From assembly GCA_000091205.1 (NCBI GenBank), contig AP006496.2: a DNA stretch of 64,000 bases; one strand, 5' to 3'. Shown here in pieces: positions 31,470 through 49,416 of the stretch (position 1 is the first letter of the stretch; every line of letters begins with the position of its first letter). Source of the stretch: Cyanidioschyzon merolae (Eukaryota). The notes beneath the pieces are model-generated. The model saw only the letters and a program-made list of their open reading frames with translations, made no database searches and was not told the origin of the DNA. The translations under genes were made by a program, and so were the position numbers.

Positions 31470-33212
31470 ATGCCTGTGGTGTCTGCGCAAGAGCGTGATG
31501 TCGTCGAGGCTAGTTCGCGTGAGGCGACGCATTCAGGGTACGTCTTGCGGGCCAGTGGAGAGCTTTCTTCGACCGCCGCTGAGTCGAGTTCCGCTCCGGA
31601 GGTACCTCGAACGCCTTCCGGAGCGGCTGGCTGCACCGCACTGCTTTCTGCTACCTTGACACCTACGGGGTCTCGAAGCAACGACTCGGGTAACGCGGAG
31701 ACCTCGACAAGAAGCGCGCTGGGCACTGCAGTAGGTGTTGTTCGTGTTGCTGGCGCCCCTGCTCGTCCACCTTCTACGACTACGACTGTTACTGCTACTG
31801 CTGCTACTGCCGCTACTGCTGCTACTGCTGCTACTGCTGCTACTGCCGCTACTGCTGCTACTGCCGCTACTGCTGCTACTGCCGCTACTGCTGCTACTGC
31901 CGCTACTGCTGCTACTGCCGCTACTGCTGCTACTGCTGCTACTGCTGCTACTGCTGCGTCATCGCCTCAGCCGAGCACCTCAGGGTCTGGAGGAGCCCCT
32001 GTCACAGAACCGAGTCGCCCGCGCTCGCAGCGTCTCTCGTGGTTCACCATCGCTCGTCGACTCTTATCGCACGGAGGGAAGAAACTCGAACTCGCCAGTT
32101 TCTTGAATGCGCTGCTTTTCCTCGGCCTCTTGACCAACTTGCACCTGACATATGTGAATCGAGCGGGCTGTGCCCCGACCCTATTGGAGCAAATGGCTCA
32201 GTTCCACCCGGAAGCACGACACGATCCGGCTCTGCTCCTGCGCCGCTACGACCTCGTCCAAGTACAAGTAGTGCCGACGCCACTCCCGCTGCAACACTTT
32301 CACAACACCTGGTCTGGCCTGCAGCCACTGTGGGAGCGGTTGTTGCCTCGTCCGCAACGGTACCAGTTCGCTACAGAAAAGGGATTTTTGCTACTAAGTG
32401 AACAGGCCAGACGAAGCCACAACATCTCCGAGTTGCATCTGGAGCTGACGACGAAAGATACGTGCTATGGTGCGTCACCATTCATGCGCGGTATTCTCAA
32501 GTACATTGTCGGTAGTGAAACCGTCGTTCTGAACGCTTTTGCGTATCTGCTGCAGTATGGCCTCCGACACGGCCACAGTAGTGGTCAGCGGTCGCTCGGC
32601 ACGGATGGGTACGTGCTCAACGTGCAGAGCGGTGATATCTATAACATCGGTCGGGTATTTATCGGGGAACTATACGCGCGCTCCGCTTACTTTACCGATG
32701 TCTTTCTGTTGAAAACGGGCGTGTTACTAACGTCAGCATATGTGATGTTCACCATAGGTGCACTGATCGCGTTTGCGTTACGGGAAGTGCAGTCAAGGAT
32801 CATGAAGTTAGCACTGGAGATCCAGAATGCTCGGAATCGCACGCCATATGCCGGAGCGCTGTTTAGCAGTTCGATTCATGCGCTGGTGCTGGTTCCGATT
32901 ATTACAGGTATCCTTTTCTTTCTTTTTGAATTCTTCGATAATCAGCTGCTTGCGTTTTGCGTGCTCGTTGTCGCATGGATTGCGGAGGTGACGGTCATGT
33001 TGGGCTGGCGGAGCGGCCTCTCGATCTACATCCTTCCGCGGGCGTTTGCAGCGTACTTGTTAGCATTTCATATTTACTTTTTCTCGTTTCCCCTGGGTTT
33101 TAGCTGGTTAGCGCTCTTCACCTGTGCCGCGTTCATGCAGCACACTGTTTTTCTGGTTTTCTCTCGGTTCGAGTCACCGCGGCTTCGCGCTGAGGCAACA
33201 ACGCAGCGATGA
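31470..33212 (+). CDS. Hypothetical multi-pass membrane protein with internal (Ala-Ala-Thr)n low-complexity tract
   Basis: 580-aa ORF. The N-terminal half is Ser/Ala/Thr-rich and includes ~20 x AAT encoded by a GCT-ACT-GC[C/T] repeat. The C-terminal ~250 aa contains 5-6 hydrophobic helices ('LLTSAYVMFTIGALIAFAL', 'ALVLVPIITGILFFLFEFF', 'LAFCVLVVAWIAEVTVMLGW', 'AAYLLAFHIYFFSFPLGFSWLALF'). Confidence 0.45.
   Translation: MPVVSAQERDVVEASSREATHSGYVLRASGELSSTAAESSSAPEVPRTPSGAAGCTALLSATLTPTGSRSNDSGNAETSTRSALGTAVGVVRVAGAPARPPSTTTTVTATAATAATAATAATAATAATAATAATAATAATAATAATAATAATAATAATAATAASSPQPSTSGSGGAPVTEPSRPRSQRLSWFTIARRLLSHGGKKLELASFLNALLFLGLLTNLHLTYVNRAGCAPTLLEQMAQFHPEARHDPALLLRRYDLVQVQVVPTPLPLQHFHNTWSGLQPLWERLLPRPQRYQFATEKGFLLLSEQARRSHNISELHLELTTKDTCYGASPFMRGILKYIVGSETVVLNAFAYLLQYGLRHGHSSGQRSLGTDGYVLNVQSGDIYNIGRVFIGELYARSAYFTDVFLLKTGVLLTSAYVMFTIGALIAFALREVQSRIMKLALEIQNARNRTPYAGALFSSSIHALVLVPIITGILFFLFEFFDNQLLAFCVLVVAWIAEVTVMLGWRSGLSIYILPRAFAAYLLAFHIYFFSFPLGFSWLALFTCAAFMQHTVFLVFSRFESPRLRAEATTQR
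31782..31955. repeat. Imperfect 9-bp (GCTGCTACT / GCCGCTACT)n coding microsatellite, ~19 units
   Basis: Direct reading 'gctactgctgctactgccgctactgct…'. Translates as (AAT)n in the CDS frame, poly-Leu in another, and (SSS/GSS)n on the reverse strand. Confidence 0.9.
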
Positions 33213-33923
33213 AGAGCGCCCGGGACTAGGACGCAGCGCACTGCATGCTTGGCGATGCGCGGGTACCATGTATAACGTGCTGCGCTCCTTGAAAAGTGTT
33301 TCTTGATTCGATGGTTTTGTTTGCAGCTTCATCGGTGCGAATGGCTGCTTGGTTGGCTTGCGACGGGTAATGCACAGCGCTTGCGTGGTGTCTCAGGCAG
33401 CTTTACGCTTGGACAACTTGCAAGCATGCCAGAAACGCCAGCACTTGTACCACTTTGGTGCATGCGAGACCACCGTGTGACGGTGCGATTTTGCATTTCG
33501 CGTGAGTACGTGCTATAGAGGGCGCGGCGGATGTCTGGCGCTGGACCAGGAACGGGCATTGCTGACGACTCCATCACGCTTTCTGGCGAGCGTATGCAAC
33601 AATCCTCCTTTCCGTGGTCAGGGTCGATGCCTATATGAGCAATTCGTATTGGTTGCATGGGTAGCGCGAGCGTTTCGTGCTACATGCGCTCGTCGTCCGC
33701 TGTGCAGCAGCAGGCAGACGCGTATCCTGGACAACAAATGCGCCGGCCAACCAGACGACGGGCAACGATTCGGTACGGTAAACGAAGCAACTTCAGTCAT
33801 ACCGAGTCCGGGTTGCTTGTGCGTGGGCAAAAGATGACTCTCGTTCCATTCGAGTTCAAACGAGCGTCGTGAATCGCCACTGCCGCAACATCGCTGATGA
33901 GTGAAGTACCCGCCGCGCCAGCG

Positions 33924-34448
33924 TCAGTCTCCGGGGAGGCGCACCAGATCGCGCCTCTTGCTCGGAGTTGGCTTTGGTGGATCTCCCGTGGGCGACAAGT
34001 CTGGAGAAATCGCCATCGATCCCGGTGTTGTTGTTATTGCTGTTGTTCTTGTCCCCGTTGCTGTCGTCGGAGGGGGTGCTTGCCGCACAGGCGCCGTACT
34101 GGCACCAGTGTGTGGCGTACGCGCACCGGCACGACGCTGGGCGTTCTCGGCGCCGTCCCGAGACGAACTTGGAGTCTCCTTCTTTCCAGGAGCGACGCCC
34201 TTCAACCTGAGCTCATAAGCCCGGACTTTGGCCGACACGTCACCGTCGCTTTCGTTCAAGTTCTGTCCATTATGTTTCTCGTGGAGTGCTGTGTAGTGAG
34301 CGATTTTCTCCCGAACCGTCCCGGACGAAGTATCGAGAGAATCATTGACGCTTTGTTCGATTGAAGAATTCGCACTCTTACTAACCGTCTCAAAAAACTC
34401 CTTCGCGGATCGTACGCTTAAGCTTGAGTTTAAAGTCTGTTGGGACAT
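33924..34448 (-). CDS. Hypothetical acidic/Ser-Thr-rich protein (174 aa)
   Basis: ORF with protein-like composition ('…KIAHYTALHEKHNGQNLNESDGDVSAKVRAYELRLKGV…'). The overlapping plus-strand ORF is Cys-rich low complexity and less convincing. No family recognised. Confidence 0.22.
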   Translation of the reverse strand: MSQQTLNSSLSVRSAKEFFETVSKSANSSIEQSVNDSLDTSSGTVREKIAHYTALHEKHNGQNLNESDGDVSAKVRAYELRLKGVAPGKKETPSSSRDGAENAQRRAGARTPHTGASTAPVRQAPPPTTATGTRTTAITTTPGSMAISPDLSPTGDPPKPTPSKRRDLVRLPGD

Positions 34449-34887
34449 GGATAGAAGTTTTCAGAGTCTATTGTCAGGTGTGCAGGTTGCGGGAAAAACG
34501 AATTTGCTGCGATGCGTGTCTGCGGCCGCAGGCGACGTCACGGCGGGAAAAACGGCTGTTGTCGCTCACGTGCAATGACGATCATGATGATCATGATAAT
34601 GATGATGGCTATGCCGTCCAGCAAATTCATTGGCATTGCAGCCTTCGGTTTTGAAAGCTTCTACATTCCTTTACTTGTCTGGGCGAATTCCAAGCAAGCA
34701 TCTGCCTCAAACGGTACCATAAAGAGAAAGCATTTGGATACCTCGCTCTCTCTACGTGAGCTTTGGAGATTCAGCGGGGGCTATTGCATGTTTCCAGCAC
34801 GCAGCAGCTACGTCATTCGTGTAGCGACTCGGACGCGTCGTGATCGGCGGTTCTATAATTGTACGTACTTACGCCGGTGTACAAAAA

Positions 34888-35045
34888 CACATCTAGATGC
34901 ATCGATCACTCAACGCAATCCGCATTGCACTGCCACGGTGATCGTAGATATCAACGTAAGTGCGCCTGCATACAAGCACATCTAGATGCATCGATCACTC
35001 AACGCAATCCGCATTGCACTGCCACGATGATCGTAGGTAGAAACG
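34888..35045. repeat. ~89-bp tandem duplication (2 units)
   Basis: 'acacatctagatgcatcgatcactcaacgcaatccgcattgcactgccacg[g/a]tgatcgtag…' is repeated starting at 34888 and 34977. Confidence 0.85.
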
Positions 35046-36220
35046 TTGGCTCCAAAGCGAAATCCCCTCGTGCTACGATGTTTGTTGGAATAGGATCGAA
35101 CAGTTCAACGAAACGTTCCAGAATGCGTGGGCGCTTCCAGAGAGAAGGCTGTGGATCTCAGCGCTTCAAGCGGTGCGATCCCGTCGTGCGGTTTTGAAAA
35201 TGATGCTATTTCCGGCAGCAGCGACTGGATCGATTCAGACGCTTGCTTGGCATCAAGCCGGTCTCGAACGGTCGCTGCACCTTCACCACCAGCACATCCA
35301 GCGTCACTGGGGTCATGCTGCGCAGACAGCACTGCCCTACAGAGCCTTGACGAGTATCCGCTGACAGAACGGCGCCCTATCGAGCCAACGCATACCGCAA
35401 CGGATGATTCGGGAGAGGCGCTGGCTGATGCAGTATGGCGAGAAAGTAGCGTTTTGTCCAAATGTTCTGTACCATGCGCAGATCAGACGCTTCGGATGGA
35501 CGAATGTATCTGGTTCGTCAACGGACGATCAAACTCGAACGGCGACAGCACGACGTGATTTGCCGACAATTGCTGCATTTTTGAAATGAAAGCCGCTCGT
35601 CGGAGCGACGCTGCACCGTTCCATATCGTTATGCGGGAGCGTCTCGTCGGCAGTTGGGAGCTTGTTGTCGTCGGCATATGCCGCTGAGCGCAGGCACGAC
35701 GACCAAACTGCAAGTTCACGAAGCAGGGTGCGTCATGCCCGCCAACAGCGCCGTCAGGAGCCAAAAGCGTCGAGAAGCAGACGCTGCTTTCAGCTGCTCG
35801 CCGGAGATAGCGCTCACCTAGGCTCCACGTTCATGCAGCAGAACTCTCTTACAGCATGGGATACTGTACCGTTGCGACGGTAGCAATGCCAGTGAGTACG
35901 TTCGCGTTGCGTTTTCTGTGCTGAAACCAGGTGATTTGCACTGTTCGAAGCGCCCCGTCATCCCAGCATAGGCCAACTGGATGCTGGCACTGCAGATTTC
36001 TCCTGAACCGGGTCGACGGAACTTGGATGCAGCGCGCGGTCCACAAGCTGCAGCACGTTTACAGAAGAACAAGGCTCGCGTAGACAATCAACGAACGAGT
36101 GCGACCTGCTCACCCTGGGGTATGCTCGATACCGAGCATCGCATCAGCGTTTGTCCAGGGGTACCCCATACCGCCAGACACATCCGTATCGTGAACGCGA
36201 TGACAAAGTCGCGTATGACC

Positions 36221-39200
36221 TCAAATGGACTCGGCGACTTTGGACTTGTGAACGAGGTCAGCCAAGTTGTCGAGGAAGAGACTCGGCGTCAGGAGATGCG
36301 TACCGCCTATGTAGACGTCGAGGTTCGGCATCTGCCGTGCGAACGTAGCCGCTATCCGACACTCTGTGCGCGTAAGGCCGCCAATAAAAAAGATCATCAG
36401 CACATCCTGGGATGGTGCACTCGACTGGGTGCTCACGGGGCGTGCTTCCACCAACGCACTCGTCGACGAAGCAGCGCAGTTGCGGCATGCATCATGTTCG
36501 CTCGAAGCCGAACGAATCTCCATAGCGGACTGAGAGACATGGGCGCCTGTCGGGAGCAGCGCATCCTGCTCAAGGACGCTACCTATCGACTGTAATGGGC
36601 TCGGCTGTCCGCTGCGTACTGGAGGCGTCCTCATTTGCAGTCCAGACGGGAGATATTCTTGGTACCGTTGCGTTCTGGTGTGTGTGGTTGAGGGCGCCGC
36701 TGTCGTCGACATGAAGGCACGGGCTGCCGTCGACGTGCTCGTCGAGGTAGCGTCTGCTCCTGGACTCGAGTCGATCGAAGGCGACACTGGGTTTTCAGAT
36801 GTGTTTCCTGCGGCTGCACAGCGACCGAGAATCTCGAGCAACAGCGGTGCACCATCACGAGCTCGTCGCTGTCTTTTGATTGGTTCTGCACTGTGACGCT
36901 CTGCCCGCAGGCACTCGATAAAGGCACGAAGGCTGGCTCGACCGCGGTCGTCGATCTGGGCTTTGGCCATCCAGCGTACCAGCAGGTTCGCGTCTGCACC
37001 GCGGCACGCTACCCAGAGGAGGATAAGACGCAACTTGGCGGAGGGTTCAACGTTGGGCTGTTGGAGCAGGGCCTCAACTTGTTGCTGCTGCTCTGCGCGT
37101 CGTACTTTTTTGCCGCTCCGGGGATCCTTGCCTGTCACCAGAATCGCCTCGAGTTGTACGATACTCGCCATGTAGCGTGACTGGTACAAGGCGGTGCATT
37201 TTTCAAGCTGATCCAGGTGGAAGCTGAGTCGTTCGACCACTCGCTGATATTCGACTACAGACTTGTCACCGAGAGTCGCGTTGGCTGACCCCTCGTTTCG
37301 AGGTCTGGAGCGAGCACTGCCCAGCGCGAACTCGCGCTGACTCGACTGACTGGCGTGTCCAGTCTCTATGAGAAACCTGTCCAGTTCAACATGTGCACTC
37401 GATGCTGCCTCGTGGATATCGAGATAGCGCAAACGCAGCCACGTTGGATCGTCAGGCGTATTCAAAGTCAGCGGTATGCTCCCGATCGACGTTGTCTTGA
37501 ACAAACTACGCTGCGGCTTGACCACAATACTCGTTGGATGACTATCGACCGGAACCGGGAACATGTCGTGCAAGAAGGCATCGTACGCGAGATCATGTCG
37601 CAGTGGTGTCAGCGGGTCCGTCGCTCGATCAATGAGCACGAGACGGACGCTGCGGCGACGATACCGGCTGCGAGAAGTACCAGTACCTGCTGCTCGCAGC
37701 TCGTCTGACGGTGCTTCTGTACAAGCGCTTGGTACAGAAGCCGTAACGTAGACGGCTTCAGCGGTAGACCGGGACGTTTCCGCGTTCATAGCCGCACGAA
37801 GCGCGTCCGCAATACCCATGGCGACGCTGCTGGCAATATGGGTGGTATGGATCTCAATCTTTGGCAGCTCAAGCCCGAGGATTTGCAATACCGAGGCGAG
37901 CTGATCACCCAGTTGCTTGCATGCCCGCTTCCATTGGGTACTCGAGTCGCCTTGCTCCGGCCTGTTACCGGATGGTCCGGTGTTCCGACCGTAGAACGTT
38001 CCAAAAAGCTCCGGCAGCTCGAAAGAGAACGCGTAGTCATCGATTGGGACTAGGTCGGCATGGAGCTCCCTAACTTGCAAACTGGCGTGCATCCCGCCTA
38101 GACTTGTTCGGACTACATCGAGCAACGGACTCGTTATCGACCGGATAGCCAAGAGCAATACGTCGAAACGGCGTTGGTGTCGAGTCGACGTTGGTGTTGG
38201 CGTCGATGATGAGGCTCGCGGTGAGAGCCCTGTGCACACCTGTGCGACCTGTGCGAGCGAGGTATCGTCCCCAGTAACCAGGAAGATGGTGTTCGTTCGC
38301 GACGGCAGGTTCTTCAGCTGTGCCGCTTCTTCGAGGGACTCAACGCCAGTGATCCCGTGGTCAGCAAGATCCGATAAACGGCAGACAGCGGCGAGGATAT
38401 GTGTGCAACGTGCATCCAAAACGAGCGTTTCCCAGCAGCCGTGTCGCGGGCGGATACTCCCGAACGTGGCCCCAACGAAGCGCATACGCAGAGCCTCTCT
38501 CAGACTGGGAGTCGATCGTAGGGTCTGTGAGACGCCGGGCGTCTCTGGTGGACGCTTCGGACCAGTGCTACGCTGCGGTGGTATGGAGTGCTTGTCGGGG
38601 GCCGTGCCACCACCGCCACCGCCAACGGTGCCACAGGCACTGGAAAGCGCAGCGATGGACAGGGTTGTTCGCTTTTCGAGCTCTGTTTCTTCATCGTCTG
38701 CTCTCTGAAGCCTCCGTTTGGCATTGTTTCGCTGCCGCTGACGACGTCGGTAGACGTAGTAGAGCGCCCCGAGTACGGCTGCCAAACCAAGGACGACGCT
38801 GGCAACCACACCGCCGATGACACCAGCGTTGCTGCTGCTGCTAGAGGATGAAGATCCCTGCTGCTGCTGCTGCGAGGACGACGACGACGACGGTGCTGGT
38901 TCCGCTGTAGGAGCAACTTCTGCTACGTCTATCGTCCCGCTGGGGCAAGTCGCCAGTATGCCGGTATCGAACGTGAGTCTACCACCACACACATACGACT
39001 GCAAACGAGCGGATGCGAGCGCTGTACCGTTCGCGCTTGCGTACGGACTCGAGTCCGTAACGAGACTGTAGTAGGACGCGTAGACGGAGCCCGCTCGCAC
39101 GCCCACAAGCCACGTCGTTTGGAAGCCGAGGCGAGTATCTAATGCCGACCGAATCACAACATCTATAGCACCAGCGTAATCGCTCAGGTTCATCGCTGGG

Positions 39201-40138
39201 AAATAGAGAGTATAGGCGAGACGAATGCCGTGCGTCTCGTTCACCGGGGTGATCCATGCGGGTGACGGTTCCACTGAGGGCACAGGATTGATGCTCTGCG
39301 GAGATGCAGCCGGTGTTGCCGCTGAAACCTGCACGGTACCGTCTACGGTCCAGTTCTGGAAAAGCAGTGGGCTATCGCCGGAGGCAAACAATCCTATGGT
39401 TCCGGAGAGCATTGCGTCTGTAGCTGTATCCACAAGGGTGCCCCATGGACTCCAACCGTTCAGACTCGCCTGGAATCCGCGTCCAATGGCGGTAAGTGTT
39501 AGGATGAAGGAGTCGCTGGCGTTCAGGCTCGGAACACTGGTGGCATTCGATGTCGCGAGCGTACGCCCCTGAAAGCCGGGTCGTAGTCTTTCCAGAGTCA
39601 GTGTCTGATTCGGACCCGTCCAAAGCAGCAGATAAAAATCGCTCACATCCCGTGCACGTGCAACGATACCCACAGTACTACTGTTGGCCGAAGCGTTAAC
39701 AGCGGCTGTCACGGTGTAGTCGGTCCAGTGCGCTATAGCGGTGCTGTTAACAAACAGCGCAAGGGCACCTTCGAAATCTGTTGACTCCAGGATCGTCGTG
39801 TTCGATGTTGCGTTTCCACTGCCCGCAGGCCCAGGCTCGTATAGTAACGTTCCATCGCTGAGAAGCGACCAGCTCGTTTCAGCAGACGCAGACGAACCCT
39901 CGCTCAGCACAAGGTACGAGCGGAGGCTCTCGAACGGCAGACTGCATGGACACGCACTGAAATTGAACGAATCGAGAGAGAAAAGCTCTGATACTTGAAC
40001 CGCCTGGCGCTCTAGATCAAGAATCAGCGCTCCAGCCAACTCAACGGATACAAGTGCAAGCAACAAACAAAAGAGAATAGCTACCCAGCCACGACACCAG
40101 CGTCGCATAGGAGGCCAATGTGCATGAGTTGCCAACAA
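36221..40138 (-). CDS. Sec1/Munc18 (SM) family protein fused in one ORF to an N-terminal signal peptide, N-glycosylation-rich ectodomain and single TM helix
   Basis: SM-domain start 'WETLVLDARCTHILAAVCRLSDLADHGITGVESLEEAAQLKNLPSRTNTIFLVTG'. SM C-terminus 'VLMIFFIGGLTRTECRIAATFARQMPNLDVYIGGTHLLTPSLFLDNL'. The N-terminus has a cleavable-looking signal ('…WVAILFCLLLALVSVELAGA'), more than 12 N-x-S/T sequons, the TM helix 'VIGGVVASVVLGLAAVLGALYYVY' and the stop-transfer 'RRRQRQR'. Confidence 0.7.
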   Translation of the reverse strand: MLATHAHWPPMRRWCRGWVAILFCLLLALVSVELAGALILDLERQAVQVSELFSLDSFNFSACPCSLPFESLRSYLVLSEGSSASAETSWSLLSDGTLLYEPGPAGSGNATSNTTILESTDFEGALALFVNSTAIAHWTDYTVTAAVNASANSSTVGIVARARDVSDFYLLLWTGPNQTLTLERLRPGFQGRTLATSNATSVPSLNASDSFILTLTAIGRGFQASLNGWSPWGTLVDTATDAMLSGTIGLFASGDSPLLFQNWTVDGTVQVSAATPAASPQSINPVPSVEPSPAWITPVNETHGIRLAYTLYFPAMNLSDYAGAIDVVIRSALDTRLGFQTTWLVGVRAGSVYASYYSLVTDSSPYASANGTALASARLQSYVCGGRLTFDTGILATCPSGTIDVAEVAPTAEPAPSSSSSSQQQQQGSSSSSSSSNAGVIGGVVASVVLGLAAVLGALYYVYRRRQRQRNNAKRRLQRADDEETELEKRTTLSIAALSSACGTVGGGGGGTAPDKHSIPPQRSTGPKRPPETPGVSQTLRSTPSLREALRMRFVGATFGSIRPRHGCWETLVLDARCTHILAAVCRLSDLADHGITGVESLEEAAQLKNLPSRTNTIFLVTGDDTSLAQVAQVCTGLSPRASSSTPTPTSTRHQRRFDVLLLAIRSITSPLLDVVRTSLGGMHASLQVRELHADLVPIDDYAFSFELPELFGTFYGRNTGPSGNRPEQGDSSTQWKRACKQLGDQLASVLQILGLELPKIEIHTTHIASSVAMGIADALRAAMNAETSRSTAEAVYVTASVPSACTEAPSDELRAAGTGTSRSRYRRRSVRLVLIDRATDPLTPLRHDLAYDAFLHDMFPVPVDSHPTSIVVKPQRSLFKTTSIGSIPLTLNTPDDPTWLRLRYLDIHEAASSAHVELDRFLIETGHASQSSQREFALGSARSRPRNEGSANATLGDKSVVEYQRVVERLSFHLDQLEKCTALYQSRYMASIVQLEAILVTGKDPRSGKKVRRAEQQQQVEALLQQPNVEPSAKLRLILLWVACRGADANLLVRWMAKAQIDDRGRASLRAFIECLRAERHSAEPIKRQRRARDGAPLLLEILGRCAAAGNTSENPVSPSIDSSPGADATSTSTSTAARAFMSTTAAPSTTHTRTQRYQEYLPSGLQMRTPPVRSGQPSPLQSIGSVLEQDALLPTGAHVSQSAMEIRSASSEHDACRNCAASSTSALVEARPVSTQSSAPSQDVLMIFFIGGLTRTECRIAATFARQMPNLDVYIGGTHLLTPSLFLDNLADLVHKSKVAESI

Positions 40139-40451: not shown

Positions 40452-41858
40452 TGTGTAGCAAGCGAACAAAGTCACTATGGAATGTACCCTGTAGATCGTA
40501 GAAGAATTGCCTGGAGGATATATTCTTTACTGAAAAGTTCAAGGAAGACTGCATCTCTCCTTCAGGTTAGTCATACCACGGTACTTAGATGGTTGAGGAA
40601 CGCTGAAAGGAAGAAGTACAAGCGCTCTGCACCTAAAACCGATATTCTCAAAGCGCGCTTGCGGGAAATGGTAGAAAACGACCCCTCGTTTACGTTACGG
40701 AAAGCAAAAGCGACGATAGAGGCCGCCACGGGCATCTCTGTTTCTCAACAGCTTGTTCGTGTGGTCCTGAAATCACTGGGATACCGTCGCAGAAAAGTCC
40801 AGCTTCACGCACGACCAACATCCACTGAAATCGCAACGACAGCGTTCATGGAGAGTCGCTATCGATATGAAGCCGAGTGACGCTGGTGTGTTTTTTCTGT
40901 CGATGAGACTTGCTTCGGGTGAAACGGGCGGTGCGTATATGGGTATTCGCGGAGCAGGGCGCTCATTGTACGTCTGTTGAAGCTCGAAGAGAGCGATGAT
41001 ATCCTCATCGGATTTATCTGGAGTGGGCCCGGGTGGCAGAATCACGTTCGCTCCTAGAGAAGGCGCACACAACAGCACCGACCTGGTCGATTCACTGGTG
41101 ACCTCTCCCTGACGTCTGGCGACGTGCTTCCAATGGACAATGTTGCATGTTACCATTCCCTTTGCGTTAGGGCTTTTGCCGATGATATCGGGGTCGAGTT
41201 GCTTTTCATTACTCCGTACGGTGCGTGATTCAACCTCAGCAAGGGAGTGTTTTTTATCATGCAACGTAATGATTGCTGCACTGGAGGAATCGCAGAAGCG
41301 TTCTGCACACAGCGACAAACCGGGAGCACAGGTCAGCTTTCTTGCGCAAACCCCGGTCTTCTTCGGGAACATCTCAACCTAGCGGCATAAAAAATGCATT
41401 CATTTTGAAGAAATAAGGGAATCCACGTGAAAGTAATGGACATGAAAGTCGGGGATACACGAGGGCCGTCATCGCCAGCCGCCTGGAAGAGAAACGGAAA
41501 AATCCTCTTCTCACCGAACATCGAGCGAAGAAGCGCAAGCGACGAAGAAGAAGGAGAAGGAGAAGAGGGGAGATCGTCGAGAAAACGTATTTGCCCAGCG
41601 GGACGAAGACGAGACTGTCGAAGCACAGCAGGCGCGAGCTCTACACAACCCTTGCAACGGTGAGTTCCACCAGCGGCAACAAATCGCAAAGAGTTCGTAA
41701 ACCGATCCTTCAACATCTCCATGAATACCAGACGATGTGCAGTGCTGTCGACCAGACCCGCAGAGCTGACGCGTTCCATCTTTGTAGTGTAGCCTCTGAA
41801 GCTCGAAGTATTCAAGGAGAAACTGAAGCCGATGCCAAGAGGCCCGTCGAAAAAAGAC
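40452..41858 (+). mobile_element. Tc1/mariner/IS630-superfamily-like transposon remnant, family 2 copy B (~1.41 kb, inverted relative to copy A)
   Basis: Reverse-complement match to 28484..29893 across all ORFs (199-aa ORF has 2 substitutions; the transposase-HTH ORF is identical over the shared part). Confidence 0.8.
40482..40880 (+). pseudogene. Truncated Tc1/mariner/IS630-type transposase HTH domain (copy B)
   Basis: Same 'YSLLKSSRKTASLLQVSHTTVLRWLRN…' sequence as 29468..29950. No DDE core follows. Confidence 0.6.
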
Positions 41859-42022: not shown

Positions 42023-43693
42023 ATGAGCGAACACTATCGAAACAGTCTGCGTTGGTGCATAGGACTACACCGAAGTTTGTTGTCGTGGCCGCAGAAACGG
42101 CCAGGTTGCCAACGCACTGGGTTGCGGTCTCCAGTGACCGGGACGCACAAAGCACCGGTTACTGCTCACTGGAAAACGCGGGATCATGAACGTGCCGTAA
42201 AGCATACTGCGTCTTTGTGGGCCGGCGGACAAAAACGGTTTCCCTGGCGCGGAGACTTTGACGTCTTGGCTCCATGCGTGCCGCTACTTCGTTTTCCCAG
42301 TTCGAAACGACAGCTTGTAGCGAGTAGACACGACGAGGCTGGAAGCGAGCACGCCCCTGCGGACCAGCACAAGTGCGAGCACATCGCCACCGTATCGTTG
42401 GAAGGAGCGCTTGCAAAAGACCCTGTCTCCACGGGCGTCTATGCCGCAGTGCAGGACCCGGAGCGCTCCACCAGCACAGAGCATACGCAGCGTGCTCCCG
42501 CGTCACCGAGCGGCACGTCGCGGAAACGACCACGGAATATGACACCATATCGACCGGTGCGCTCAGAAGTGGACTACCGAGCACTCGTCGACGACGAGCT
42601 ACCCCGTATCGTCAAGGGGCTCGGTCTTGGGCCGACGGCAGTGCTCGCGCTGGATCCGCAACATCCTGGACCGACTGAACAAGCCAAAAATGCATACCTT
42701 TCGTGGCTAACCGCTGGGTATCACGGCAGTATGGAGTACATGGCCCGGACGGATCGCATACGGCGGGCTTTGAACTACGAACAAATCCTGCCTGGTGTTC
42801 GAGCGATCGTTGTAACGACACTGTTCTACTGGCCGGGCAAGTCGGGGTTCACCGCACCCGCAGACGCCGCAACACCGAACCGAGGCACCGTCTCCTGCTA
42901 CGCGTGGGGTCAGGACTACCACCGCACGCTGGGGCAAAAGCTGAAGCAGCTCGCAGAGGAGATTCATGCATACGCAGGAGGTCAGGGGCGCTACTACGTG
43001 GACACCGGTGCTTTGCTGGAACGACATATCGGCGAAAGTGCTGGCCTGGGTTTTGTGGGAAAAAATAGTCTGCTCATTCATCCGCAGCTCGGAAGTGGCT
43101 TCTTTCTTGGGGAGGTCCTAACGACGCTGCCGCTTCCGAGCAAACGGCCGGATCTCTCTGGACGCGGTGGCTGCGGACGTTGTCGAAAATGTCGGACGGC
43201 TTGTCCAACTGGAGCGATTGTCGAAGACCGAGTTGTCGATGCTCGACGATGCATCTCTTACTTGACGATTGAACTGAAAGATGCGATTCCGGAAGAATAC
43301 CGCGAAGCGATCGGCTCCCTCATCTACGGCTGCGATATCTGCCAACAGGTATGTCCCTGGAATCAATTCGACTGGGAGGGATCACCTACGAGCCCGCTTT
43401 TCGGTGAGGTACCCCAGGATGTCCGCGAACCGGATCTCTTGGCGTTACTGGACCTGAACGAGGTTTCTTTTCAAGAACGATTCAGGGATTCACCGATACG
43501 GCGGATCGGCCTTGAGCGCCTCCAGCGGAACGTGCTTGTAGCGCTGGGTAATGTGGGGAATCCGCACCAGTCAAGAGCTCGTCTCGTTCGATTTCTTGAG
43601 GAGAATGAAAGCGAATTACTGCGAGAACATGCCCGTTGGGCGCTTGATCGCATTGAACGGCGAGAAAAAGCTGCTGCGCCTTTTGCAGGTTGA
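42023..43693 (+). CDS. queG: Epoxyqueuosine reductase QueG-like (tRNA queuosine biosynthesis), with ~180-aa N-terminal extension
   Basis: Ferredoxin-type 4Fe-4S motifs 'CGRCRKCRTACPTGAI' and 'CDICQQVCPWN'. The QueG-typical 'ISYLTIELKDAIPEEYREAIGSLIYG' and the C-terminal HEAT-like tail 'LQRNVLVALGNVGNP…LREHARWALDRI'. N-terminal part of the domain 'AYLSWLTAGYHGSMEYMARTDRIRRALNYEQILPGVRAIVV'. Confidence 0.75.
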   Translation: MSEHYRNSLRWCIGLHRSLLSWPQKRPGCQRTGLRSPVTGTHKAPVTAHWKTRDHERAVKHTASLWAGGQKRFPWRGDFDVLAPCVPLLRFPSSKRQLVASRHDEAGSEHAPADQHKCEHIATVSLEGALAKDPVSTGVYAAVQDPERSTSTEHTQRAPASPSGTSRKRPRNMTPYRPVRSEVDYRALVDDELPRIVKGLGLGPTAVLALDPQHPGPTEQAKNAYLSWLTAGYHGSMEYMARTDRIRRALNYEQILPGVRAIVVTTLFYWPGKSGFTAPADAATPNRGTVSCYAWGQDYHRTLGQKLKQLAEEIHAYAGGQGRYYVDTGALLERHIGESAGLGFVGKNSLLIHPQLGSGFFLGEVLTTLPLPSKRPDLSGRGGCGRCRKCRTACPTGAIVEDRVVDARRCISYLTIELKDAIPEEYREAIGSLIYGCDICQQVCPWNQFDWEGSPTSPLFGEVPQDVREPDLLALLDLNEVSFQERFRDSPIRRIGLERLQRNVLVALGNVGNPHQSRARLVRFLEENESELLREHARWALDRIERREKAAAPFAG

Positions 43694-45036: not shown

Positions 45037-48000
45037 TCAAGCGTTTGCCTTGTGATCGTCCAAGCTCTGTGCACAGATCGCATGAAATTTTTTCAGAAAA
45101 CGCTCGAAATTTTCAGTTACAACATAGACACCATCATGCCTTGATACACGAACGTACGGCGGCGGATTTGTCAGAACGTACGGAAGACTATTCTGTGGAG
45201 TGCCCAGATTAAGGATTCGATTCGGAAACGGTAGACGACGCTGTCCGCAACTCCAGAACGTTAACCATGAAAAGCATGTCCGTTGTCGACGCTGTCCCGG
45301 GGTTGCACCGTCCACGCCCGTATCCAGCTCCGTCAACGGTTCCAGGATACGCTCCATGAATTCTTCGGAATCGATGTCCAGTCGCCGTGCAAGATCGCTG
45401 ACCAAGTCGAGTATGGACTCGTAGGGTTTCATGGAGCCTTCATCCTTATGATCGTTGGAACTAAAGCGACTGAGCAACATCTGATGGAGATCAGCGACGC
45501 TCACCCGCACATTATGGTGGAAACCGCGGTACAGTCCGTAAGGCAGCGCACCCGCTCTTATCACGATTTCGAGTAATTCGACGTAACGAATGTCGTGGAT
45601 TTCCGCTGGTACATTGGCCAGATGCAAATGCGCTCGACTAATCCGGATTCGTCGTCCGCGATGATCAAAGCGACTCACCGGCATGCCGAACAAGGACTTG
45701 GTGAGCAGTACCACACCCGGTAACGCGTGTTCCCGCGTCAAGAGCGCAGTCGCAAAGATGGAGGTTGCTGTAAGTTCCCCGCTAGCAAAGCGATTCCGAT
45801 ACCGAAAACCCTCGTCACCACCGACGTGTGCCTCGAAGACGCGAAGGGCAACGGTGCTGGGTACCGAAGACGGGGTTGCGTGGTTTCGGTACGCCCCGTG
45901 CTCGCGTGGAGTGTGCAGATCATCGTTTGGAGGCATCGTGGGTAGCACGTCAATGGGATGGTACACCTGCAAATGCCGAATCGGACGACGCTCGAACGGA
46001 TTCCCCAGACGCAAGTAGACTCGTCGGGGTGCGGCTGCTGGCACCATCTCTAGCGCCTGATGCCGAGACAATTCCGAGGTCACATATACATCGCACTGAT
46101 AGTGGCGCAGTAGCAGATCCAAGTTCACCATGGAAAACACTTCCAGGCCAGAGAGGGTTGTTTCTGGCTCCACGAAACCCTGAGCGGTGTCGTTGCTCAC
46201 GAGTACAATGGCATGCGCATGGGCAGCTTGCACCCGCGCAAGGTCCGATATGCGGAGCACTGAACCCGCCACATGTCTGAGCGGACCATACTTGGCTGCT
46301 ATCTCAGCAAAGTGGGACTCATTGGAAAGCGACGGGACCAGAACGAGCACTTCAAAGTTCGCTACTTTCCAGCCGTTCGGTGCCGAGAACCCCGGCTCCT
46401 GCGATGGCGCACTCGAGTCTGCGTTGACACGAACGTAACTCACGGACGACCGCAGTGCCTTGGTAAAAAGCTCCAAAAAGACCGTGCTTAGCGTTGAGCT
46501 GCAAGTCGCGAGAATAACCGTGGCCTCTTTCGGTGCCTCGTCTTCATCAACGTCATCATCAGAGTTTCGAAGTTGATCACCTGCGTCCTGCTCGCTGCCG
46601 GGCTCCGATGACTCGGACGCAGACCTTCTCGCGAAATCTGCCAAAGGGCGGCTTTCCGCAGTGGCATCCAGACTCGTCCGCTTGACGACACCAGCAGTGG
46701 CAGCTCGGGTGTCATGAGCGCGCTCGGTCGACAGCACAGACGGAAACGCAGACGCTGACACGGCCTCTTGGCGCTTTTGCGAGTCGTTGGATACCGCCGT
46801 GTTCCTGCGGCTGCGTGCTCTGCGTTGCTGGAGACGAAGCTTCTCCGCCGATGCAGCGGTATTGAGACGGCCTCGCCCGGTACCCAGCTCCACTTCGGGC
46901 AACGCAACCTCGACCAGGCCGAAACGAGTCCACCCGCTGGAGCGTGACTGCTTGCTCAACCGCGTGTTGTTGCTCGATGTGTCAGCGTCGTCCCGATCGA
47001 GGCTTTTGCGTAGCTCCCAGAGATCATCGACGGCTCTGGTGCTGTAGAGCCAGGAGATCACAGGACGAAACTGATGCCGAGCACACAGAATAAAAAGCAA
47101 CCCTCGGGTTCCTATTTTGTGCCGGGGATTGTACAGCACACGCCATGCTCCAGCCGAATCGAGTATCAGCAGCCCCGCCACCGCCACTTCAAAGCGCAGG
47201 TACAGCTCAAGTGCCAGTTCGCCGAGACGCACCCCAGCTAGCCGCTCTGGCAACGAGATTCGCCGTAACTTGTGCCGAACACCAGTCTTGTACTCAAGAA
47301 TAGACAACGAGTCGCCGAAACATAACGGTCGATCGATACGGGGATCAGCTAGCATATTCCGGACAAGCGTGGACGCCCCATTACAATGCACATTGGCTGC
47401 CAACAAGTACGCTGCAAACTCCAGCTGACAGAGCGTCCGAGTTTCGTACTCCAAGAGTCCCGCCTGTACTGCATCTTCCGTATCCCGCGGATGCTCATCA
47501 GCATCTATCAGACACTGAGTCTGGATGAAGAGATCTTCCAGCTGGCGAACTGCATAAGGCGTCTGGAAGAGGATATGCAGCGGGAGTCGCGGGTAGTGCA
47601 TGCGAACTGTGCGCGCACGAAGCACCAGCGCAGCATCGTCAGCGATACGGTGCGTTTCGGTATAGGAGTCACGCGGCTCAACGCCCGAAAATAACAGGCA
47701 CATTTCAGCGTGACCGAGGTCCACGCGACGGCGGTCATAAGCCTCATAGACATTGCCTACGAGCAAACGAACGCGATCCGTGGCTTCAGTGTGCTGGAGC
47801 ACGTGTGTTTGGGGCTCGCTCAGGTAGAGATCATCAAGGAAGATGATAAAGTACGCCAGAGCATTGCGTTGTTCCGCATAGAAGACAGAGAGTGCTGCCT
47901 CCAATTGCGGGAGAGAAGGACGACCAGTCACCACAATGTGTCGCCGGTAACCACCAGCCCGGAAGGAGCCCTTACCCTCCTGACTCATCTTGTAAATATT

Positions 48001-49416
48001 CACAATATTCGCAATGGCGTACGCAAAGTAGGCAACCATAATTACGATCACAATGGTGACGTAGATGCGAGCGACGACATTGGTGGCCACATAGTCACCG
48101 TAACCTACGGTCGTTACCGTCACGATCGTGAAGTATATGGAGGATGTTGGGGTGAAATGGTTCGATCCGCTCGCGTACTCGATGTCAAACATGAGCATAG
48201 CGATGCTGAAGACAATGGCAAAGAGGTGAATGCTCAGAGAGACGACATAACGCCCGACACGGCCGATGTACATGTGATCCTCGCGCAACATGTCCCGATT
48301 GTATATATAGAAAAAGGCTTGCACTGCCGTGATTGAACGAAGAAAATTGAAGTTCACAAAAGAAACGTTCCCAGCGGCGGATCGCAGAGCCGATGGTATC
48401 GATAAACTCTCTGCAATCGCACTCAGGGTGAAGACGTGATTTCGATAGTACGGACCCCGGTGCGGCAGCAGAAAGACTCGAAATGCGTAATCCACGGCGA
48501 ACCATAGACCTACAGGCCAATAGTAAACACGTCCAATGTAATCACGACGAAGCTCGCCCTCAACATAGAAGATCACACAAGTAGCCAGATCGATCAGGAG
48601 TCGAATCCAGCTTAACGCCAAAGTCACACGAGAGCGTTCCATGGTCATCTCGAGGCGCTCGACGAGCAGCGAATATCGCAACGAGTCCTCAGTGACTATC
48701 GGTAGACGATCGCTTACAGGAGGAATCATTCGAGACCACCAGGGTGTCATGACTTTCATACTGAGATGCAAAGCTCGGGCTCGATTCACCCAGTTTTGAG
48801 CGTCGTTGGCGTCAGCGACACGCTCTGCGACAACACCCGAAGCGCCAACATGGCGTACTACGGGACCGTCCGGGATTGCAGTGCTTTCAACGCTTTCTAG
48901 GTCTGGTTCATGCAGCGACGCGGTCGCAACTCGTCCAGCGTCCAGCTGGGCTAACGACGAGTCTACTGGAAAGTCCGGCTTTTGCGAAGCCGCCTCCAAA
49001 ACGCCACGACTCAGCTGCAGCGGGCTCGACGCGCGGTTCGTTTTGCCAGTCTCGCGCTGCAGCAGACGCTCAAGGACATCAGGTTGTTCGAACACGGCAT
49101 CGGTGTCCGCTGCAGACCCGCTGAATTGCCCCTCGTCCGCGTCTTCATATGGTTTGAGCCACGCGAACACGCTCCGATCCGTCAAGGCTGGCGGTAAAAG
49201 ATGCCTGTTGAGCCGCGAGCGTAACCATAGTGCCGCCAGACGCCCGCGGGCCCGACGTCTAGCCAACAGGCGGAGGCGGCGAAGCGCACGAAAAAGGAGC
49301 AGCAGAAGAAAAGGCTTGAGAGCGACTACACAGAAGATAATAGAGCCCCAAACAAGGGAAAAGAGCAAACCTTTTACGTCGCTCAACCGTACACTATCTT
49401 GATCAGAAGAAGACAT
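45037..49416 (-). CDS. Slo/BK-like (RCK-domain) potassium channel, 1459 aa
   Basis: K+ selectivity filter 'FTIVTVTTVGYGDYV' preceded by hydrophobic helices. 'RHIVVTGRPSLPQLEAAL…' matches the start of the first RCK domain in Slo channels ('KHIVVCG…'). Long cytoplasmic C-terminus. Confidence 0.78.
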   Translation of the reverse strand: MSSSDQDSVRLSDVKGLLFSLVWGSIIFCVVALKPFLLLLLFRALRRLRLLARRRARGRLAALWLRSRLNRHLLPPALTDRSVFAWLKPYEDADEGQFSGSAADTDAVFEQPDVLERLLQRETGKTNRASSPLQLSRGVLEAASQKPDFPVDSSLAQLDAGRVATASLHEPDLESVESTAIPDGPVVRHVGASGVVAERVADANDAQNWVNRARALHLSMKVMTPWWSRMIPPVSDRLPIVTEDSLRYSLLVERLEMTMERSRVTLALSWIRLLIDLATCVIFYVEGELRRDYIGRVYYWPVGLWFAVDYAFRVFLLPHRGPYYRNHVFTLSAIAESLSIPSALRSAAGNVSFVNFNFLRSITAVQAFFYIYNRDMLREDHMYIGRVGRYVVSLSIHLFAIVFSIAMLMFDIEYASGSNHFTPTSSIYFTIVTVTTVGYGDYVATNVVARIYVTIVIVIMVAYFAYAIANIVNIYKMSQEGKGSFRAGGYRRHIVVTGRPSLPQLEAALSVFYAEQRNALAYFIIFLDDLYLSEPQTHVLQHTEATDRVRLLVGNVYEAYDRRRVDLGHAEMCLLFSGVEPRDSYTETHRIADDAALVLRARTVRMHYPRLPLHILFQTPYAVRQLEDLFIQTQCLIDADEHPRDTEDAVQAGLLEYETRTLCQLEFAAYLLAANVHCNGASTLVRNMLADPRIDRPLCFGDSLSILEYKTGVRHKLRRISLPERLAGVRLGELALELYLRFEVAVAGLLILDSAGAWRVLYNPRHKIGTRGLLFILCARHQFRPVISWLYSTRAVDDLWELRKSLDRDDADTSSNNTRLSKQSRSSGWTRFGLVEVALPEVELGTGRGRLNTAASAEKLRLQQRRARSRRNTAVSNDSQKRQEAVSASAFPSVLSTERAHDTRAATAGVVKRTSLDATAESRPLADFARRSASESSEPGSEQDAGDQLRNSDDDVDEDEAPKEATVILATCSSTLSTVFLELFTKALRSSVSYVRVNADSSAPSQEPGFSAPNGWKVANFEVLVLVPSLSNESHFAEIAAKYGPLRHVAGSVLRISDLARVQAAHAHAIVLVSNDTAQGFVEPETTLSGLEVFSMVNLDLLLRHYQCDVYVTSELSRHQALEMVPAAAPRRVYLRLGNPFERRPIRHLQVYHPIDVLPTMPPNDDLHTPREHGAYRNHATPSSVPSTVALRVFEAHVGGDEGFRYRNRFASGELTATSIFATALLTREHALPGVVLLTKSLFGMPVSRFDHRGRRIRISRAHLHLANVPAEIHDIRYVELLEIVIRAGALPYGLYRGFHHNVRVSVADLHQMLLSRFSSNDHKDEGSMKPYESILDLVSDLARRLDIDSEEFMERILEPLTELDTGVDGATPGQRRQRTCFSWLTFWSCGQRRLPFPNRILNLGTPQNSLPYVLTNPPPYVRVSRHDGVYVVTENFERFLKKFHAICAQSLDDHKANA

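Follow-up and report, generated by a model that had tools for sequence, protein, structure and literature searches.

The window analysed here is a 64,000-nucleotide stretch of contig AP006496.2 from Cyanidioschyzon merolae. Its minus strand carries a single open reading frame (ORF), 36221..40138 in the ORF listing and 1305 codons long when counted from an upstream TTG, which joins a glycoprotein-like N-terminus to a Sec1/Munc18 (SM) domain. The first ATG is codon 11 of this frame (window position 40108), and the product from ATG to stop, 1295 aa, is identical to GenBank BAM81213.1 (XP_005537249.1), a 'CMN' locus on chromosome 14 of C. merolae 10D. A sequence-only reading of the window had described an ORF of 1305 codons; the single open frame is present, but the true coding sequence (CDS) has 1295 codons, and its start Met is common to all three closest homologues in the alignment. 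Residues are numbered from this Met unless stated otherwise. With this identity the window is nuclear DNA of C. merolae, in keeping with its GC content of ~55% and its long unbroken ORFs, apparently intron-free, on both strands; no tRNA genes were found in it.

Sequence comparison confirms that the SM-fusion protein is the product of one real gene, which is already public as a gene model. The 29 near-identical environmental variants of C. merolae type differ only by substitutions (R6P, L19F, P521S and P1171L) and by an in-frame change in poly-Q length, giving proteins of 1295-1299 aa, with the rest of the 1295-aa protein invariant. In five of them (P0001, P0007, P0008, P0014 and P0016) the stalk has 8-9 Gln rather than 5 (38870-38884, residues 413-417).

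Architecture of the SM-fusion protein

All of the elements that had been described along this frame, from the glycoprotein-like N-terminus to the complete SM domain, were recovered by hydropathy, sequon counts and Pfam (Table 1). The C-terminal part matches Pfam Sec1 (PF00995) from end to end, scoring 179.7 bits (cut-off 30.7; E=1.9e-52) and covering positions 2-574 of the 575-position model, over residues 571-1290 in the numbering of the 1305-codon ORF, and full-length PF00995 matches are also seen in the homologues P0020, P0054 and P0058. From this end-to-end match the domain would be expected to have the three-domain, arch-shaped SM fold around a central cleft. The motifs LVLD, DRxxDPxTPxxH (..TY), W..LR, GG.S..E and GGT..LTP are shared with Munc18-1 and are invariant or nearly so in a six-member family alignment, the GG, E, GGT and P positions strictly so. 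With this match and these hallmark motifs, the SM domain is complete as had been claimed, but alignment to Munc18-1 moves its start to ~28 residues ahead of 'WETLVLD', near residue 534.

In phmmer searches against PDB chains, the SM region matches Munc18-1, Munc18-2, Munc18-3 and squid Sec1 best (1.4e-19), compared with 5e-4 for Vps45. The same preference is seen in P0076 (Munc18-2 at 5.7e-24 versus Sly1 at 6e-3) and in P0020 (Munc18-2 at 1.6e-38 versus Vps45 at 1e-11). On sequence similarity, the SM domain therefore falls closest to the exocytic Sec1/Munc18 subfamily, and not to Sly1, Vps33 or Vps45. The ratio of non-synonymous to synonymous substitution (dN/dS) in the SM core is 0.08-0.12, whereas two low-complexity, lineage-specific inserts (residues ~780-825 and 1101-1235) evolve nearly neutrally.

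To our knowledge, all characterised SM proteins are soluble or peripheral and have neither a signal peptide nor a transmembrane (TM) segment. The protein encoded here lacks this soluble character: its N-terminus is signal-like, and its single TM helix is flanked by basic residues. It shares the full-length Sec1 domain and its hallmark motifs with exocytic SM proteins such as Munc18-1/STXBP1, yeast Sec1 and Arabidopsis KEULE/SEC11, but these are soluble or peripheral proteins of ~600-700 aa which reach the membrane via syntaxin binding. The SM-fusion protein has in addition a signal peptide, a 400-aa head, a TM helix, an 80-aa tether and two large low-complexity inserts.

The N-terminal segment has a Kyte-Doolittle (KD) peak of 2.63 (19-residue mean) and, by eye, an A-G-A before L28 that obeys the -3/-1 rule, in agreement with the signal peptide proposed earlier. 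Beyond it there is only one more hydrophobic peak, at residues 428-453 (KD 2.42), which is followed by RRRQRQR and corresponds to the single TM helix with a poly-Arg stop-transfer of the sequence-only reading. Between the two lies the sequon-packed ectodomain of ~400 aa: 13 N-x-S/T sequons occur in the first 430 aa compared with 2 in the other 846 aa, and none of 2000 composition-preserving shuffles gave as many as 13. The Ser/Gln run of the stalk is also present, at residues 407-426. Sequon bias is a feature of all three close orthologues, which have 12-14 sequons per ~420-aa head and 2-4 in a cytosolic part about twice as long, and six sequons and four Cys of the head are conserved across the three species. 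The 15 residues after the TM helix contain 5-7 Lys/Arg in the homologues that were scored at the true TM; in P0078 the true TM, at ~381, fell outside the automatic scoring, and the flank, WRRLRHRR, was taken directly from the protein sequence.

The signal-like segment, the sequons and the positive-inside flank support a type-I orientation, in which the head would face the lumen or the exterior and the SM domain the cytosol, and on these three grounds the topology put forward earlier is self-consistent. The SM domain could meet SNAREs only with the N-terminus out and the C-terminus in, which fits this orientation. On the predicted cytosolic side, the LSIAALSSACG motif of the juxtamembrane segment is kept within the Cyanidioschyzon/Cyanidiococcus clade, and the whole tether between the TM helix and the SM domain measures ~80 residues (454-533). 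An acidic stretch next to the membrane was considered as a mimic of the syntaxin N-peptide (DRTxEL-like) and was dropped, as the stretch is not kept in orthologues.

Table 1. Features of the SM-fusion gene and its predicted product in the window
Feature	Position	Strand	Basis and remarks
Complete CDS, 1295 codons plus TGA stop at 36221-36223	36221..40108	-	ORF listing, GenBank identity
Ten in-frame codons before the ATG, starting TTG	40109..40138	-	Mechanical ORF only, outside the gene; the homologues all begin at the Met matching this ATG
Predicted cleavable signal peptide, residues 1-27 (MRRWCRGW, hydrophobic core, A-G-A before L28)	40028..40108	-	Hydropathy, -3/-1 rule by eye
Ectodomain A, residues 28-262	39323..40027	-	CPCSLP motif, then predicted ConA-like/DUF1080 (PF06439, CBM66-like) beta-jelly-roll; conserved N-glycosylation sequons
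Pro/Thr/Ser-rich linker between ectodomains, residues 263-293	39230..39322	-	Predicted local distance difference test (pLDDT) below 50
Ectodomain B, residues 294-400	38909..39229	-	Small predicted beta-alpha-beta-beta-alpha domain adjoining the membrane, two conserved Cys
Ser/Gln-rich stalk, residues 401-428	38825..38908	-	Codon comparison; in-frame differences in poly-Q length between environmental variants
Single transmembrane helix, residues ~428-453 (AGVIGGVVASVVLGLAAVLGALYYVY)	38750..38824	-	KD peak 2.42; equivalent helix in 7/7 homologues
Cytosolic juxtamembrane segment, residues 454-493	38630..38749	-	Basic stop-transfer cluster (RRRQRQR..KRR), acidic patch, LSIAALSSACG motif
Variable Gly/Pro-rich tether, residues 494-533	38510..38629	-	Weak conservation, frame always kept
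Complete Sec1/Munc18 (SM) domain, residues 534-1295	36224..38509	-	Pfam PF00995, PDB matches

The fold of the N-terminal ectodomain was not reached by direct Pfam and PDB searches. A PDB sequence search with the N-terminal 533 aa returned only a chance match to a TM helix, and the paralogue P0054 scored 23.1 bits against PF06439, below the cut-off of 26.8. A head-only profile, used in an exhaustive hidden Markov model search against 1.84 billion representative proteins, did lead to the PF06439 family. It matched 55 proteins, four of which are fusions of the head with Sec1 (P0003, P0020, P0054 and P0058); ~50 large multidomain proteins were matched over profile positions ~98-230, with E-values down to 2.1e-20, and PF06439 is carried by all seven of those sampled. 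An AlphaFold2 (AF2) model of the head was built from six family sequences, and Foldseek with this model found the CBM66 carbohydrate-binding module (E=4e-7, target TM-score 0.64-0.72). The model superposes on the CBM66 of Bacillus subtilis levanase and on one DUF1080 structure. By profile and by predicted fold, domain A is a ConA-like jelly-roll of the DUF1080/CBM66 kind. The likeness to DUF1080/3-keto-disaccharide hydrolase (PF06439) and CBM66 consists of profile-level homology and the predicted jelly-roll fold; these relatives are modules of large multidomain secreted, apparently bacterial-type proteins, unlike the head of the SM-fusion protein.

Ectodomain B has the lowest dN/dS in the protein (0.07-0.10). 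Pfam gave no match to it in five family members at E-values up to 10, and the model predicts a beta-alpha-beta-beta-alpha unit (pLDDT 82-86); fold searches with the model of both domains were taken up mainly by matches to domain A. To describe domain B as SEA-like in appearance would be a guess from the model.

Conservation of the fusion in Cyanidiophyceae

Full-length relatives with the same layout are found in Cyanidiococcus yangmingshanensis (KAF6002804.1, here P0002, 1253 aa) and in a metagenomic Cyanidiales protein (P0003, 1228 aa), both with ~53% identity to the C. merolae protein over 96-99% of its length. Their loci (L001-L003) are syntenic with the window, having in common with it neighbours of GOST-type seven-transmembrane (7TM), Membralin and QueG-like type, with a local rearrangement in C. 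merolae. The fusion is also unbroken in Cyanidium caldarium CDCA09G2611 (P0078, 1153 aa) and CDCA02G0585, the latter clustering with P0058, and in P0020 (1084 aa) and P0054 (1306 aa). In the two Cyanidium proteins, P0054 and P0020 the order of head, TM, basic cluster, tether and Sec1 domain was verified to be the same, and all homologues have one strong TM helix (KD 2.4-3.3), a tether of roughly 60-110 residues and then the SM domain. The sequence-only reading had pointed to orthologues as a check on the fusion, and the same unbroken architecture is present in the syntenic orthologues and in the further homologues, with no split genes found among them.

By sequence, these proteins form a family specific to Cyanidiophyceae, in which at least two groups of paralogues can be told apart. 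The C. merolae gene, P0002, P0003, P0078 and P0020 make up the first; P0054 and P0076 make up the second and are 22-24% identical to the C. merolae protein, with few sequons and longer tethers. Among the proteins matched by the head profile, the combination of head and SM domain appears to be restricted to this class.

It had also been considered that two neighbouring genes, one for a glycoprotein and one for a soluble SM protein, might be expressed independently and merely share a frame. The 40-residue stretch just ahead of the SM domain is indeed poorly conserved, and the one in-frame Met near the junction (M542) lies at the start of the SM domain. However, the eight homologues, which span two paralogue groups and four or more lineages, all lack a stop codon between the halves, even though synonymous sites are at or near saturation between species (proportion of synonymous differences, pS, 0.62-0.92 by region, the exception being the TM segment, 25 codons long, which stands at 0.33 in the closest pair). 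An untranslated spacer would be randomised at such divergence, yet the frame is open in three species. The upstream gene would have no stop of its own and would have to read into the SM domain, and its would-be end, the juxtamembrane segment, is under purifying selection in a codon comparison of three species (proportion of non-synonymous differences, pN, 0.12-0.33 versus pS 0.72-0.92). M542 is Ala in the orthologues, and a start there would remove the ~10 first residues of SM helix 1. Public annotations also call a single gene. The two-gene alternative is therefore rejected, with only a negligible chance left to it. A related idea, that the locus makes a soluble SM isoform beside the anchored full-length form by way of an internal promoter or internal initiation, draws on the presence of a Met within the first ~20 SM residues in each of the three closest orthologues (M542 in C. 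merolae, and the Met of ASMLG/ANMLG elsewhere), but the positions of these internal Met differ between species and we consider such dual products very unlikely. A predicted signal peptide, head, TM helix and complete exocytic-type SM domain lie together in one conserved frame.

One source labels P0003 (8001-11687 in L002/L003) as 'cbb3-type cytochrome oxidase subunit 3'. This label is evidently spurious, and probably comes from the TM or a low-complexity segment.

A predicted membrane-anchored SM protein and its possible role

We favour, with a probability of roughly 0.6, the reading that this is an exocytic SM protein tethered in the membrane with type-I topology, and that its lumenal, lectin-like head may link SNARE assembly to glycan or wall cargo. 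The protein would be inserted into the endoplasmic reticulum, receive its glycans and travel through the secretory pathway as far as the plasma membrane. A flexible tether of 60-110 residues would keep its SM domain at the cytosolic face, so that every carrier or target membrane containing the protein would have a resident SM for chaperoning or templating exocytic SNAREs, presumably SYP1-type Qa-SNAREs with R- and Qbc-SNAREs. The covalent anchor would replace recruitment by soluble SM-syntaxin binding and by exocyst-type tethers. A single exocyst subunit is retained in C. merolae, where tethering complexes are few (PMC1810245), and a covalent anchor could stand in for the recruitment and tethering that these provide elsewhere.

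The lectin-like head probably binds glycan, either on secretory or wall glycoprotein cargo in the lumen or in the wall or matrix outside, and such binding would tie the state of the cargo or wall to the site at which the fusion machinery is concentrated. The design of the head is like that of the L-type lectin cargo receptors, which suggests binding of glycoprotein or wall cargo. No sequence relationship was detected between the head and these receptors (ERGIC-53/LMAN1, VIP36 and Emp46/47; PF03388), so the resemblance is one of analogy only and not of homology. L-type lectin cargo receptors have a cytosolic tail of ~10-12 residues with coat-binding motifs, whereas the cytosolic part of the SM-fusion protein comprises 840 residues of tether and SM domain. 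A conceptual parallel for permanent membrane attachment is Vps33 in HOPS/CORVET, an SM protein held stably at the membrane by other machinery and not by transient syntaxin binding. Vps33 is, however, attached non-covalently, through a multisubunit tether recruited by Rabs, while the window protein has a covalent TM anchor and belongs by similarity to the Sec1 subfamily instead.

The published record on these genes is mostly in tables. In supplementary tables accompanying a Plant Cell paper of 2026, several 'SEC' genes of Cyanidiophyceae are flagged for a signal peptide by SignalP and for TM segments by Phobius, and the genes flagged include C. merolae CMI070C, Cyanidium g153 and g912, and Galdieria partita g718 and g1423 (PMC13353863). 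In the same tables these five have a strong bias towards the walled diploid (log2 fold change 3.3-6.0), and a sixth TM-flagged gene, Galdieria g1424, has a mild diploid bias of 0.8 (PMC13353863). The five are alike in their signal-peptide and TM flags, as known from the published tables; Galdieria SM proteins were not recovered by the head-domain profile, which means that their heads may differ. Cyanidiophyceae genomes have ~10 SM genes each (8 in Galdieria), compared with 16 SNAREs in a genome of roughly 5000 genes, and the authors propose that the diploid-enriched SMs work with SYP1 in wall formation (PMC13353863). Both the bias of the paralogues towards the walled diploid phase and this SYP1/wall proposal fit the picture of wall cargo. 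Membrane anchoring of SM proteins is not mentioned in the text of that paper (PMC13353863), nor in a 2007 survey that classified the SMs of C. merolae (PMC1810245).

In the literature searched, no naturally TM-anchored SM protein and no discussion of BAM81213.1 were found. The statement that a membrane-anchored SM is unrecognised from characterised systems therefore held, with the supplementary signal-peptide and TM flags as the only precedent. The gene model and the table flags are already public, and the description of a membrane-anchored SM is apparently new to print.

Several points weigh against a tethered, cargo-coupled SM protein. The protein is known here from its sequence and a predicted model, and its predicted topology is based on hydropathy, the positive-inside rule and sequon statistics. 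PF06439 gave no Pfam match above threshold on the window protein, the AF2 model of the head is of moderate confidence (mean pLDDT 65.5, with ~70-79 in domain A and 82-86 in domain B), and a ConA-like fold is not proof that the head binds glycan. The SM domain is divergent in sequence, matching Munc18 at only ~1e-19 and containing large inserts, and could have a derived role. C. merolae also has a canonical soluble Unc-18-like gene, CMD164C, which has 0 TM segments in the supplementary tables (PMC13353863). As the soluble CMD164C coexists with it, the anchored SM would be an addition to ordinary Sec1 and not a replacement for it.

The anchor might instead serve delivery only, with cleavage in the tether or in the membrane freeing a soluble SM domain; by analogy with SREBP, ATF6 and Notch, such release might be regulated by a ligand of the head. 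Autoproteolytic SEA-type modules occupy a juxtamembrane position in other type-I proteins, and by analogy the compact alpha/beta domain next to the membrane would suit such processing, as would the 60-110-residue, weakly conserved and probably disordered tether of every member. The family alignments, however, have no visible conserved cleavage motif in the tether, and the organism already encodes soluble SM proteins, so that a precursor of this kind is unlikely. It is likewise improbable, in our view, that the Sec1-like domain has been neofunctionalised, the protein being a surface receptor or adhesin whose SM-derived part is a scaffold or signalling module and not a SNARE chaperone. The long branch and the large SM-domain inserts would agree with this, and ~10 SM genes to 16 SNAREs suggests a surplus of SMs over the classical pathways. 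Against it, strong purifying selection acts on the SM core (dN/dS ~0.1), the motifs of all SM proteins are invariant or nearly so in both paralogue groups, and the best matches over the whole domain are still exocytic Munc18/Sec1.

A tentative extension of the type-I tethered SM reading is that the protein is a hybrid, evolved in Cyanidiophyceae, of cargo receptor and fusion factor; vesicles would carry their own SNARE-assembly catalyst and their fusion competence would be tied to cargo. We consider this extension doubtful; if true, exocytic specificity would be achieved independently of tethers in a eukaryote where most of the exocyst and the other tethering complexes have been lost.

SM proteins are soluble factors in textbooks, and it is a long-running question how they are recruited and what share of their function is due to high local concentration near SNAREs. 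A natural, conserved and covalently anchored Sec1/Munc18 protein with a lectin-like head, as predicted here, would bear directly on the question of recruitment. In C. merolae the trafficking machinery is minimal and gene targeting is routine, so the SM-fusion is experimentally tractable there. The protein also offers a molecular lead for differences in secretion between the walled diploid and the wall-less haploid phase of Cyanidiophyceae.

Neighbouring loci

Directly upstream of the SM gene, a 132-aa ORF (40482-40880, plus strand) matches the helix-turn-helix of Tc1/mariner-type transposases (PF01498, 31.6 bits versus 31.5). The order of the QueG-like, SM, Membralin and GOST genes is rearranged at this transposase ORF relative to the Cyanidiococcus loci, and the ORF may be a transposon remnant at the rearrangement breakpoint. 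On the other side of the SM gene, the ~3 kb downstream of it (33213-36220) have no ORF >175 aa; at the matching position, the Cyanidiococcus and metagenome loci have a called gene of 158-161 aa.

The next ORF (31470-33212, plus strand) encodes a Membralin (PF09746) homologue and contains, at 31785-31957, a 9-bp tandem repeat of ~18 copies with 92% matches, translated as a run of (Ala-Ala-Thr)n within the protein's N-terminal extension. At 42023-43693 (plus strand) there is a homologue of the bacterial-type epoxyqueuosine reductase QueG (PF08331 and a 4Fe-4S dicluster domain) with an N-terminal extension of ~250 aa. This is an unusual enzyme for a eukaryote, and it adjoins the SM gene in other Cyanidiales loci too. 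Further along, 45037-49416 (minus strand) encodes a 1459-aa homologue of BK/Slo-like potassium channels, with Ion_trans, Ion_trans_2, Slo-like RCK and BK_channel_a domains.

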